Source: Nitrospirota bacterium (GTDB lineage: Bacteria > Nitrospirota > UBA9217). Taken from it: a DNA stretch of 64,000 nt. Position 1 is the stretch's first letter; each line of letters opens with the position of its first letter. The translations under genes and the position numbers were made by a program. Where the stretch lies: assembly GCA_963790205.1 (NCBI GenBank), contig CAWBNQ010000005.1, positions 471,368 through 535,367 on the forward strand, in the 5' to 3' direction. Under the pieces are notes generated by a model that worked only from the letters and a program-made list of their open reading frames with translations, did no database searches and was not told the origin of the DNA. This document shows positions 39,764 to 44,082 of this stretch, in pieces.

Positions 39764-40456
39764 ATGAACAGAGAACTGGCAATTGTACTTCTCAGCGGCG
39801 GGATGGACAGCTGCGTCACTGCCGCCATCGCGAATACAGAGTATCGGCTCGCGTTTCTCCATGTGAACTACGGCCAGAGGACCGAAGCGCGCGAACTTCA
39901 AGCGTTCAACGAGGTTGCGGACCATTACAAAGTTAAGAACCGCCTCGTGGTGAGCATAGAACACTTGAAAGTCATCGGCGGCTCCGCCCTGACGGACACA
40001 AACATCCCCGTCCCTGAAGCTGACGCCCCTCAATCGGCAATCCAAAATCTACAATCCGCAATTCCATCGACTTACGTTCCCTTCCGAAACGCCCACCTGC
40101 TCTCGATCGCAACTTCCTGGGCAGAGGTGATCGGAGCCAGGAAGATATTCATCGGCGCCGTTGAAGAGGACAGCTCAGGCTACCCCGATTGCCGCGAGAC
40201 CTTTTATCAGGCCTTCAACAAAGTCATCGAAATGGGAACAAAACCGGAGACACGGGTCGAGATCGTCACGCCGCTCATTCACATGAAAAAAGGAGAGATC
40301 GTGAAACGGGGCGTCGAGCTCGGCGCGCCGCTCCGCATCACCTGGAGCTGCTATCAGAACAGCGAAAAGGCCTGCGGCAGGTGCGAGAGCTGCGCATTGC
40401 GATTGAAGGGGTTCAAAGAGGCCGGTGTGAAGGACCCGATACCGTATGAGGGATAA
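39764..40456 (+). CDS. queC: 7-cyano-7-deazaguanine synthase
   Basis: [32 protein letters not shown]. Confidence 0.96.
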
Positions 40457-40765
40457 ATAAACACATTAAAATCCTGCGAGAGTCCACCGTTCAGAATAAT
40501 TCCATTCCAGGTTTCATCTGCCACTATTTACTTTGCTAAAGCGAAATAATTATCAAGTACCGGTTGAAACATGCTATCGAAGTTTTCGTTTAAATCGGCG
40601 GGATCGTTAGTCCACTTCGGACACCACGTTATATATGGGTAGAGCATGAGGTTAGATTCTCCCATTAAAGTATAGGGAAAATTATCTTCAAGACTACCCA
40701 AAATAGAAACCTCCTGCTAAGAATAAGTTTATAGCGAAACTAAATTCTTGTGGCAGGAGGTTCCT

Positions 40766-42073
40766 ATGAATTATGTAGATGATATCAGACTTGAGCAGTT
40801 TCTTCAACTGAAGAAAGAAATTCGCGGTTCGGAAAAGCATTTGATCGTCGGCATTGACGCGGCCAAGGAGAAGCACAACGCTTTTTTCGGTACGGCACGC
40901 GGAAAAACGCTGGTTAAGAATCTGGTCTTTGACAACACGCTTGAAGGCTTTCAAAAGCTGCTCGCCTATGTCGAGCGAATCAAAGTTCAATATAGCCTGA
41001 CCACGGTCGTTTTCGGAATCGAGCCGACGGCGAACTATCACAAGCCCCTGGCGGAGCATCTGATCAAGTGCGGGCACATGGTCGTTCTCGTGGGAGGCGT
41101 CGCGGTCAAGAACAACCGGCAGCTTCTGGACGGCCGCTGGGACAAACATGACGTCAAAGACGCGGCAAACGTCGCAGATCTTATCGCCCAGGGGAAGTGC
41201 CTGTTTTACGAATACCCCCTGATGACACTGCGGAACGTGCGCGTCCTGATCGCACTCAAACGGCGTTTAAAGAGAAGGGAACACGGCATGAGCGTATGTG
41301 TTCGCAATCACCTCATCGCGCAGTATTTCCCCGAGTTGGACCAACACTACGGCCCATCGGAAACCCTGACGGTGGTAAGGGAATGTCTTGACCCCTCGGA
41401 GATCGCCGGCATGGAATACGATGCCTTCTGCCGCACCGTCGCGCCGGGCAAAATGACGCTGGCGAAGGGCCGCAGGGTGGGAATGATCTGGAGGGCCGCG
41501 GTTGATTCCATCGGCTGCACTATGGGAGAAGCGGCGTCTTTCGAAGCTCAAGTCATGGTGGACGGCCTGAAGCAGATCAGGCAAACCATCAAGTCGGTGG
41601 AGGAAAAACTCGAAGATGCCTGCATGGAATTTCCGGAGTACACCTACTTGCTGAGCATTCCGGGGTTCGGACCGGATGTTTCCTCAAAGGTGCTTGGGGC
41701 CATTGGAAATCCACGCCGCTTTACGAGCGCCAAGCAGGTATTGAAAATGGCAGGCCTCGACCTGTGCGCGGATCGAAGTGGCAAGAAGTCCACCAGCGCG
41801 ATACCGGTCATCTCCAAGCAAGGCAAGGCCGATCTCCGCTACGGACTGTATCAGGCGGCATTTATCGCCTCGCTTAAGAACAAGGACTTTATCACCTACT
41901 TTACGAACAAGCTCAAGGGCCGGGCAAAGGAGAAAGGCATCGTCACAAAGATGCGCGTCAAGCTGGCCGCGAAGCTCCTGGTTATCGCTTGGACGCTGAT
42001 GAAAAAAAAAGAATGCTTTGATCCGAAATATCTCAAACAGGAGGATGAGGCCGCGAATAAAAAAGCGGCATGA
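40766..42073 (+). CDS. IS110-family DEDD transposase/recombinase
   Basis: VGIDAAK (D), GIEPT (E), KHDVKDA (DD), LLSIPGFG, RSGK serine, ISKQGKADLRYGLYQAA. Confidence 0.95.
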   Translation: MNYVDDIRLEQFLQLKKEIRGSEKHLIVGIDAAKEKHNAFFGTARGKTLVKNLVFDNTLEGFQKLLAYVERIKVQYSLTTVVFGIEPTANYHKPLAEHLIKCGHMVVLVGGVAVKNNRQLLDGRWDKHDVKDAANVADLIAQGKCLFYEYPLMTLRNVRVLIALKRRLKRREHGMSVCVRNHLIAQYFPELDQHYGPSETLTVVRECLDPSEIAGMEYDAFCRTVAPGKMTLAKGRRVGMIWRAAVDSIGCTMGEAASFEAQVMVDGLKQIRQTIKSVEEKLEDACMEFPEYTYLLSIPGFGPDVSSKVLGAIGNPRRFTSAKQVLKMAGLDLCADRSGKKSTSAIPVISKQGKADLRYGLYQAAFIASLKNKDFITYFTNKLKGRAKEKGIVTKMRVKLAAKLLVIAWTLMKKKECFDPKYLKQEDEAANKKAA

Positions 42074-42097
42074 TCCGTGAAACGTAAAAAACCAATT

Positions 42098-42279
42098 TCG
42101 GCGAGAGAGCCCGGGACACTACGTTGAGGCTACGACCTCGGTGGGGACAATACAGGACCTCTCGTTTGAACGATAGAATCTGGATAAGGTATTCTGGGCG
42201 GCCAAACTGAAAGCGCGGCATGCCGAATAGGCTGTAACGATTAGAGTTATCGTTCGTCTGGATGCGAGAGACTCGCCGA
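42098..42279 (+). ncRNA. Candidate IS110 bridge/seek RNA
   Basis: Outer stem TCGGCGAG/CTCGCCGA enclosing two stem-loops; the first has an internal loop whose two strands match the element's left and right flanks. Confidence 0.72.
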
Positions 42280-42430
42280 TCAAAGCGATGCTGGCAGGAA
42301 TGCCGGGAGGAAAGCTGCGTCTTCAATCGACGCAGAAAACCATCTGATTGAAAATTATGAAAACTAAACTGTCACTTGACGGGAGCGTTATAGTATGTCC
42401 CCAAAGTTCCCGCGTGGCCATGATAAGATT

Positions 42431-42858: not shown

Positions 42859-44082
42859 CTAGAAGAACGACGTCACGACCAGGACCAGCGTCAGGACGAT
42901 CATGATCACGACCGTGGCCCACGCGATGATATTGAAGGTCTTCGAGTTGGTAAAATCGCCCATGATGTCCTCGTTGTTGATCAGCAAGAGCATGAAGATC
43001 AGCACAAAGGGCAGCATCACGCCGTTCACCACTTGCGAGATAAGCATGATCGGGATGAGGGGCGCATTCGGGATAAGGATGATGAGCGCCCCGATCGCGA
43101 TAATAGCGGTGTAGAGCCACATGAACTGCGGCGCTGTTTTAAAATTCTTGTCGACCCCGGACTCCCACCCCATTCCTTCACACACATAGTAGGCCGTGGC
43201 CAACGGGAGGATGGACGCGGCGAACAGCGAGGCGTTCGCCAATCCGATCGCGAACAGTATTGACGCGTATCTTCCCGCGAGCGGGGCAAGCGCCACGGCC
43301 GCGTCTTTCGCGTCGGTTATCCTGATGCCGCTCACATACATGGTGGCCGCGCAGGAGACGATGATGAAGAACGCCACAAGGTCGGTCATGATGCAGCCGA
43401 CGATGACGTCCATGCGTGACGCGCCGTAATTTTCCACCTTGATGTTCTTCTCCACCACAGCGGACTGGAGATAGAACTGCATCCAGGGCGCGATGGTGGT
43501 CCCCACGACGCCGATGAGCATCATGAGATAGGGCACCTTGAACTCGAACGACGGTTTCACCGTATCGAGCATGATCTGTCCCCACGGCGGGTGGACGAGG
43601 TATGCCGAGACCACGTAGGTCAAAAAGACGGTGCAGGCGATAAGGAATATCCGCTCGACAAAGCGATAGGTCCCCTTTACCACGAGCAGCCAGACCGCAA
43701 AGGCGCCGATGGGGACGGAGACGTACTTGCTCACGCCGAAGATCTCCATGGACGAGGCCCAGCCCGCGAACTCGGCCACGGTATTGCCCATGTCGGCAAG
43801 CAGCAGGCTCAGCATGAGGAAAAACGTCATTCTCACGCCGAAATTCTCCCGGATCAGGTCGGCAAGCGTCTTGCCGGTCACCACGCCCATGCGGGCGACC
43901 ATCTCCTGCACCACGATGAGCGCGATCGTGATGGGGATCAGCGTCCAGAGGAGCGAGTAGCCGAAGTGCGCCCCGGCGACGGAGTACGTGGCAATGCCGC
44001 CGGCATCGTTGTCCACGTTCGCGGTAATGATGCCGGGGCCGAGCACGGAGAGGAATACGAGTATCTTTCGTTTATTGAGCAT
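42859..44082 (-). CDS. Nramp-family divalent cation transporter (Mg2+-type clade)
   Basis: GPGIITANVDNDAGGIATYS and GTTIAPWMQFY instead of the MntH DPGN/MPHN motifs. Confidence 0.9.
   Translation of the reverse strand: MLNKRKILVFLSVLGPGIITANVDNDAGGIATYSVAGAHFGYSLLWTLIPITIALIVVQEMVARMGVVTGKTLADLIRENFGVRMTFFLMLSLLLADMGNTVAEFAGWASSMEIFGVSKYVSVPIGAFAVWLLVVKGTYRFVERIFLIACTVFLTYVVSAYLVHPPWGQIMLDTVKPSFEFKVPYLMMLIGVVGTTIAPWMQFYLQSAVVEKNIKVENYGASRMDVIVGCIMTDLVAFFIIVSCAATMYVSGIRITDAKDAAVALAPLAGRYASILFAIGLANASLFAASILPLATAYYVCEGMGWESGVDKNFKTAPQFMWLYTAIIAIGALIILIPNAPLIPIMLISQVVNGVMLPFVLIFMLLLINNEDIMGDFTNSKTFNIIAWATVVIMIVLTLVLVVTSFF

Follow-up and report, generated by a model that had tools for sequence, protein, structure and literature searches.

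We have studied an IS110 insertion sequence lying within a 64,000-nucleotide stretch of DNA from a Nitrospirota bacterium (the window, whose numbering is used throughout). The right end of this element very probably encodes a bridge RNA of two loops, which is predicted to guide a recombinase of 435 amino acids both to a 14-base target and to the ends of the element once these are joined, a GT dinucleotide being the crossover. The boundaries, the core, the fold of the RNA, the four guide segments and the handshake base were all deduced by comparison of sequences.

Results

The Element and Its Recombinase

With one copy of its GT core the element is 1,769 bp in length (40630-42398). It is situated between convergent queC and Nramp-family genes (window 39764-40456 and 42859-44082), neither of which is interrupted. 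The genome contains four full copies, i.e., that in the window, two without internal differences and one at 90.5%, and the three identical copies occupy different sites. Judged by its copies, the window element is a recently mobile, intact IS110 insertion sequence. Its ends and its gene comprise the following features.

40628..40629 (+), left copy of the GT core, the crossover (uninterrupted sites; start of identity among the genomic copies)
40630..40635 (+), right donor arm, the first bases of the element, and predicted −10 box of a circle-junction promoter (common to 4/4 copies; complements the right donor guide; spaced 17 nt from the −35 box at the predicted junction)
40703..40767 (+), hairpin pairing the Shine-Dalgarno sequence of the recombinase gene, a predicted translational brake (inverted repeat I4; fold)
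40766..42073 (+), IS110 recombinase, 435 aa (PF01548 and PF02371; NF033542; D31, E86, D129, D132, S338)
42390..42396 (+), left donor arm, the last bases of the element (the same in 4/4 copies; absent from uninterrupted sites; overlaps the right-hand CGTTATA)
42397..42398 (+), right copy of the GT core (genomic copies, guide/flank comparison, uninterrupted sites)

The reading frame is intact, as had been predicted, with a Shine-Dalgarno sequence before the ATG at 40766 and a stop codon at 42071-73. The protein carries both IS110 Pfam domains, and scores 150.6 bits against the NCBIfam model of IS110 RNA-guided transposases, for which the cut-off is 140. In a sequence alignment D31, E86, D129, D132 and S338 coincide with residues of IS621; among 13 homologs the four acidic residues are invariant and the serine is present in 12. 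The best matches to a structure model of the recombinase are IS621 structures (8wt9_A, E = 2e-14, 21% identity). The DEDD RuvC-like domain and the C-terminal Tnp domain with its catalytic serine, by which the IS110 family is recognized, are thus both found. The hairpin over the ribosome-binding site folds in 29/29 distinct homolog versions, but these versions were chosen by its two arm motifs.

Our family sample consists of 71 related loci and the four genomic copies, 75 loci in all. The RNA could be parsed in 58 of these, and 17 are without a parsed RNA. The junction parser was keyed on the donor-arm motifs, so that the 100% conservation of the donor-arm columns is partly built in. Two loci (L029 and L053) look mosaic, with the RNA or left end of one subclade and the protein of another. 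The best plasmid relatives of the recombinase have about 400 aa and 28-30% identity, and a search with the RNA model gave no match beside two distant plasmid relatives.

A Predicted RNA of Two Lobes in the Right End

The part of the right end downstream of the gene contains the elements of the predicted RNA.

42098..42279 (+), predicted bridge RNA, with an outer stem around target-binding and donor-binding loops (30-homolog alignment)
42116..42124 (+), left target guide, 7 nt and GT (19 distinct guides, 37 insertions)
42126..42139 (+), inner hairpin of the target-binding loop (helix 3, 100% paired)
42142..42148 (+), right target guide, the complement of GT and 5 nt (14 distinct guides, 36 insertions)
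42149..42153 (+), target-loop handshake bases (42149-50), with 42150-53 as a possible bulged extension facing the donor end (40 RNAs)
42184..42193 (+), left donor guide, ATA, a 2-nt bulge and then 4 nt (matches the donor arm in most of 40 RNAs)
42197..42224 (+), inner hairpin of the donor-binding loop (helix 7, 4/6 pairs with two-sided changes)
42227..42238 (+), right donor guide, split into 42227-28, a bulge and 42234-38 (42227-29 do not vary among 30 RNAs; arranged like the IS621 template)
42239..42240 (+), donor-loop handshake bases (42239 is the complement of left-target-guide position 7)

All the sequences named in the original prediction lie where it had placed them, i.e., CGTTATA (40627-33 and 42386-92), an 8-bp stem (42098-105/42272-79), two loop segments (42114-25 and 42143-53) and a segment in the second stem-loop (42232-39). 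Aligning 30 homologs gives an outer stem and two lobes, both of which contain an internal loop and an inner hairpin; two internal loops within a structured noncoding end are what is expected of a bridge RNA. The fold contains 38 pairs, with 97.4% of cells paired and two-sided changes in 20 of the pairs. This was matched by 0/500 shuffles, and slid controls gave 34-44%; the structure was derived from the same alignment that was used to score the pairing. The fold of the window RNA as a single sequence is ordinary when compared with shuffles (z = −0.15); it is the alignment that supports the structure. In this copy there is a C-A mismatch (42157) in the stem that closes the target loop. Rfam contained no match, giving one chance hit (E 0.25), and the RNA-model search revealed no orphan RNA in this genome. 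One homolog (L055:1432-1545) has a second, partial match to the model upstream of the full RNA, which is possibly a duplicated target loop.

Both donor guides match the element's own ends. The first three bases of the left guide match the donor arm in 38/40 RNAs and the last four in 37/40. This requires the 2-nt bulge, and in this subclade the guide mismatches the core's initial base. A T/G variant in the left guide follows the donor in 40/40 RNAs, but this represents about one split of the tree, and the covariation of the donor guides is limited to that one position. The right guide is found where the original prediction had suspected that a segment near 42232-39 could pair with the core; it occupies 42227-38 in split form, and the G at 42234 generates a wobble at donor position 12.

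The handshake base 42239 is complementary to the left target guide at position 7 in 25/30 RNAs, compared with a permuted mean of 13.3 and with 3-14 for the other guide positions; the count is uncorrected, and by eye L006 is a further Watson-Crick case. Position 7 of the guide changes at least seven times on the protein tree. In 10 further RNAs the relationship is Watson-Crick in eight and wobble in two. The handshake bases would therefore pair with the noncognate DNA at position 7, as in other bridge RNAs, and on this comparison the signal fixes the register independently of the flanks.

What is the reciprocal relationship of the target loop to the donor end? In register only donor position 7 pairs (36/40 RNAs). 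When shifted by one, donor positions 7, 6, 5 and 4 form Watson-Crick pairs in 37, 38, 20 and 33 of 40 RNAs, mostly by conservation. There is partial covariation, a donor G meeting a C in the RNA in 6/25 cases and an A in 13. It is possible that 42150-53 and the donor end form a longer, bulged handshake after strand exchange. The original prediction had taken these bases as an extension of the right target guide with an extra A. That assignment fails because GTAT (42393-96) belongs to the element and not to the target, so that 42150-53 matches the donor end.

Might the RNA rather act in the manner of the seekRNA of IS1111 elements, where the target loop alone guides as a short processed RNA, the protein reads the element ends, and the second lobe is a scaffold? 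We consider this improbable. The RNA does have the position downstream of the gene that it occupies in IS1111 elements (PMC11187229), an RNA of the target loop only is given as 90% of the bound RNA for CazIS110-1 (10.1101/2025.10.25.684509), and the donor-guide covariation comes from about one tree split. However, there are no long sub-terminal repeats that the protein could recognize. The original prediction had found none; the longest perfect inverted repeat is 4 bp here and 3-7 bp in 21 distinct end pairs, compared with 7-17 bp (usually 11-13) in IS1111 elements. Moreover both donor guides lie within an internal loop in the split layout of IS621, and the handshake base of the donor loop has changed along with the target guide on several separate occasions. 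We therefore continue with the two-loop bridge RNA.

The Target Guides Follow the Flanking DNA

Host DNA adjoins the two copies of the core as follows.

40554..40620 (+), left part of a host intergenic repeat, in which the element is inserted (G014 L130, 84%; C3:426809 in this genome)
40621..40627 (+), left target arm, 7 nt of host DNA (agrees with the left target guide at 6/7; −1 to −7 vary with the guide among homologs)
42399..42403 (+), right target arm, 5 nt of host DNA (complements the right target guide at 5/5; varies with it among homologs)

We compared each guide with its own flank in the homologs. The mean match of the 19 left guides is 4.82/7, compared with 2.66 ± 0.31 when permuted, and that of the 14 right guides is 3.64/5, compared with 1.64 ± 0.34. 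On each side 0/20,000 permutations equaled the observed match; guides had been collapsed to distinct sequences beforehand, since kin are not independent. The RNA segments thus covary with both flanks, the left with the bottom strand and the right with the top, in agreement with the original prediction that the RNA of the right end carries the two target guides of an RNA-guided IS110 recombinase. Its check by covariation between loop segments and flanks gave a clear outcome.

The extent of the match is well defined. Over 43 left junctions the identity of guide and flank is 0.65-0.88 at −1 to −7, falling to 0.33 at −8 and 0.14 at −9. Over 50 right junctions it runs from 0.96 to 0.66 across the five bases after GT and is 0.30 at the sixth. 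The target is consequently a 14-base span of 7+2+5, and not the 10-12 nt of pairing on each side that had been proposed. The target span of IS621 likewise reaches −7 and +5 (PMC11208160). As a control for chance, 117/20,000 random GT-centered pseudo-targets matched the first 250 nt of the right end equally well when a match was allowed anywhere within it.

Each of the three identical copies occupies a site with one mismatch to the 14-mer predicted from the guide; among uninterrupted sites in the genome none has zero or one mismatch and nine have two. Searching with the RNA model gave 28 loci, of which 13 were already known, four were unparsed and 11 were new. For the new RNAs the matches were 3, 3, 2, 3, 5, 4, 3 and 5 of 5 at eight right junctions, and 3, 5, 6 and 4 of 7 at four left junctions. 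In some variants (L006, L013, L025, L043 and L062) the left-guide strand is longer by 2 nt (15 nt), and the flank matches extend past a possible bulge.

Some insertions fit their own guide poorly, i.e., L033 (0/7), L064 (2/7 and 1/5), L052 (3/7), L053 (0/5) and two sites of the L025 type (L025/L027, 2.5/7), and the 90% copy in this genome has 4/14 mismatches to the target of its guide. These misfits could possibly reflect bulged pairing, mobilization by the RNA of another copy, a later change of guide or sequencing error. The site of the 90% copy is a better fit to the guide of other variants (L030 type) than to its own; the guide may have changed after insertion, or the copy may have moved with another RNA. 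This copy (G000:C5:354075-354183) is about 108 bp from a Y1 transposase homolog.

Could the protein, or the structure of the DNA, recognize the host repeat and so mainly set the target, with loops that merely resemble it? Three observations could be read in this way. The insertion sites share bases beyond the guide, belonging to the same host repeat; ISPpu10 is described as requiring a target stem-loop in addition to pairing (10.64898/2026.03.19.712850); and there are the poor fits noted above. Yet near-identical proteins with different guides (L005, L006, L007, L013 and L023) are found in correspondingly different flanks, and the matches cease at −7 and +5 as expected for pairing with RNA. 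The explanation is thus very unlikely, and extra target context may add to the guide rather than replacing it. Targeting by the guides remains our preferred reading.

The Host Repeats

The site used here forms the end of a host intergenic repeat that occurs throughout the family, several times in inverted pairs spaced 60-80 bp. At one locus (L140, G051:C13) two copies of the target motif in inverse orientation flank the gene of a Y1 (IS200-like) transposase, which suggests that the target is the end of a repeat family of REP or TIR type. In a scan of this genome the motif was found beside 0/6 Y1 transposase homologs, and the candidate link to REP/RAYT was rejected. The likeness of the target to the CGTC/GTAG-tagged repeats described in PMC3733652 is one of resemblance only. 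Motifs nearby also brought attC to mind as a possible target, a reading that we do not advance.

Relatives in the genome G001 are re-aimed at a different sequence (flanks of L006-L032, and L072-L085). This is an AT-rich intergenic repeat of roughly 120 bp, in which CAAC-like and TTGAA-like motifs flank a conserved center at a distance of about 45-50 bp on each side. The present genome has 18 profile matches to it at E < 0.01 (e.g., G000 C5:269006-269125 and C5:523809-523917). When the surroundings of the G001 targets were scanned with a consensus for IHF-type sites, no position stood out clearly. The L027 copy is in another repeat, of 18 copies, and is an off-target insertion for that guide; this repeat looks like the 3′ end of a group II intron.

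The Crossover Is at GT

On the comparison of filled and uninterrupted sites, the crossover is the GT dinucleotide at 40628-29 and 42397-98. A BLAST search with the left flank alone found an uninterrupted homolog (L130 in G014), aligning with 40554..40620 at 84%, that passes through GT into the right flank, and a paralogous uninterrupted site in this genome (C3:426809) does the same. When the element is removed from L027 with one GT retained, the product is the exact sequence of 12/18 intact copies of its repeat; five of the remainder are two bases shorter and one is one base shorter. It is because uninterrupted sites run straight through GT, together with the L027 reconstruction, that we place the core there. 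Insertion thus occurs at a short core without further duplication of the target, as is typical of the IS110 family.

Searching for uninterrupted sites with a pattern that presupposed the GT register gave 24 matches in 18/64 family genomes, compared with six control matches. In G001, which has about 25 copies, we rebuilt 18 filled sites with a single GT; they align with 13 members of the target repeat that carry no insertion. The pattern that yielded these 13 gave 19 matches against 23 in controls, i.e., no enrichment by count; the 13 were retained because they align with filled sites outside the pattern, and five coding matches and one duplicate were dropped.

The original prediction had taken CGTTATA as the boundary. 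Bases 42393-98 are identical in 4/4 genomic copies, whereas the copies differ within the right-hand CGTTATA, which is altered in the 90% copy and is thus not conserved. A 7-bp core CGTTATA with a 25-bp target and 10-12 nt of pairing per side is scarcely tenable, for although the repeat is present, and 42150-53 pairs with 42393-96 after a 1-nt shift in a conserved manner, all the DNA fetched and the genome itself contain no empty site of this kind compared with 16 distinct sites in the GT register, with L130, C3:426809 and the L027 reconstruction also against it. The core and recognition span that had seemed atypical resolve with GT into the ordinary 7+2+5 layout of IS621.

The Predicted Circle Junction

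Joining the two ends is predicted to create a promoter, part of which lies just inside the right end.

42376..42381 (+), predicted −35 box directed outward at the right end (present in 4/4 genomic copies; function by analogy with IS621)

At the predicted junction this box (42376-81) is followed after 17 nt by the −10-like box (40630-35), which is preceded by TG and is without its last T. A linear promoter scan gave one site where 1.7 were expected. We searched for the junction itself. A pattern allowing either core gave 0 hits in metagenomes; a broader pattern gave 11 metagenome and five viral hits, 0/16 with a transposase or the RNA nearby and most upstream of unrelated genes. The end-to-end joint was absent from the contigs of eight public DNA runs, in which such circles are rarely assembled.

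Footprints of 23 bp

A second potential donor site lies within the left end.

40651..40657 (+), internal GT and donor-arm-like bases, the breakpoint of 23-bp footprints (5 precise footprints end there)

Among 75 GT sites of the element, two resemble the right donor arm most closely, namely that at 40651-52 and that in the right-hand CGTTATA. We examined 33 distinct left-end starts, comprising 30 of 54 matches and three from this genome. The sequence continues as element in 25, and eight stop at or next to the internal GT. Five of these eight, in five genomes with different flanks and two types of target, continue exactly with GT and the right target arm, i.e., the first 23 bp of the element stand between the left target and GT with the right target (G000:C3:423325-423349 (L191/L212), L198, L201, L208 and L211). 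The cases L209, L217 and G000:C6:46362 are less precise. A second kind of remnant (G000:C3:438253-438308) is an isolated copy of the ribosome-binding-site hairpin of the left end, followed directly by target-like sequence.

Excision from an internal half-site, with the chromosome rejoined, is the simplest reading of these footprints and a likely one. It is in line with the recognition of the donor only (10.64898/2026.08.31.748434) and with the recurrent internal endpoints of partial circles (10.64898/2026.08.14.744561) that have been reported. Two results count against it: there are no footprints among 21 starts in the genome richest in copies, and among 31 sites there is no full element starting at the internal GT, just one fragment of 39 bp. 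Alternatively, the footprints could possibly have been left by host-mediated deletion. Our literature search listed no paper on such footprints. The combined proposal of a second donor half-site 23 bp inside the left end, excision with chromosomal rejoining to leave a fixed 23-bp footprint, and a longer bulged handshake of 4 bp is tentative, and we would put its chances at somewhat below even.

Discussion

Taken on its sequence, the element appears to work like IS621, having those features of a bridge RNA that can be read from sequence, and it is likely to be a known kind of bridge recombinase rather than a new system. It shares with IS621 and ISCro4 (IS622) the DEDD and serine recombinase and its fold, two internal loops, the 7+2+5 target and a 2-bp core, for which GT is accepted in those systems (PMC11208160, PMC11208158, PMC13626964). 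The handshake signal at position 7 has its counterpart in PMC11208158. As described for IS621, the right donor guide is split, a G wobble occurs at donor position 12 (G161 in IS621), the handshake bases are present, and insertion is into host repeats; by eye the donor is identical at 11/14 positions, and the promoter predicted here at the junction is of a kind that IS621 forms. There are also clear differences from IS621. The RNA is in the right end, with a common outer stem that closes the target and donor loops, and without a separate 5′ stem-loop. The protein has 435 aa compared with 328, with about 21% identity, and the natural core is GT. The left donor guide has a 2-nt bulge and the right one a bulge of 4-7 nt, and a hairpin covers the ribosome-binding site in a left end of 136 nt.

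Like the IS1111 elements with seekRNA (ISEc11, ISKpn4 and ISPa11), this element has a long downstream noncoding region with segments matching the target, and natural re-aiming (PMC11187229). It differs in lacking their 11-13 bp sub-terminal repeats, in that the left guide precedes the right as in IS621, and in its protein of 435 aa, which by length falls not within 330-350 aa but within the 395-455 aa range of the IS110 subgroup with no or short sub-terminal repeats (PMC11187229). The RNA (42098-42279) is downstream of the gene, whereas IS110 elements in the narrow sense have it in the left end; Durrant et al. state that rule as one for the majority, with exceptions (PMC11208160), and a 3′ noncoding region is already on record for IS110-type elements (Siddiquee et al., PMC11187229). 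On these descriptions, IS110-type elements that combine a 3′ RNA with the lack of long sub-terminal repeats are a minority that has been published. The arrangement that the original prediction described is correct, while its view of this as atypical is not sustained.

The targeting resembles that of REP sequences by IS621 and ISPpu9/10, but the link to such transposases was not seen in this genome. Alternative or half-matching ends and recurrent internal endpoints are described for ISPpu9, ISPpu10 and IS110 partial circles (PMC12288879, 10.64898/2026.08.14.744561, 10.64898/2026.08.31.748434); those accounts concern circles, whereas here there is a chromosomal leftover, a fixed 23-bp footprint with a rejoined right target. 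Two proteins with the motifs of this clade stand without an ISfinder name in the tree table of PMC11208160. A literature search (IS110, bridge RNA and Nitrospir) found no paper on the clade, and a closer described element could stand in Supplementary Table 5 of PMC11208160, which gives the location of the RNA for each ISfinder element.

How might the element move? By analogy with IS621, the RNA would be transcribed together with the recombinase gene, both by read-through and from the promoter formed at the joined ends, and would be cut out of the recombinase transcript to bind four recombinase subunits. The target loop would open the host site, pairing 7 nt and GT on the bottom strand and GT and 5 nt on the top, and the donor loop would open the circle junction. 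D31, E86, D129 and D132 with S338 would cut and exchange the strands, and the handshake pairs (42149 with donor position 7, and 42239 with target position 7) would drive insertion forward. In this lineage the guide would be aimed at the end of the host intergenic repeat, and in relatives it would have been re-aimed at other repeats.

The element adds a fully mapped bridge recombinase from a distant clade, with about 21% identity to IS621, a natural GT core and a 3′ RNA, and for a reprogramming assay the family offers natural variants of the guides, no fewer than 19 on the left and 14 on the right. The 23-bp footprints bear on the open question of cut-out versus copy-out. If the excision reading is true they would be a natural record of an IS110 element cut out with its flanks rejoined, a process that laboratory studies dispute, favoring copy-out with the donor site intact. 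As judged from these comparisons, the donor sequence and the handshake rule of IS621 appear to hold in a clade where the RNA is at the other end of the element.
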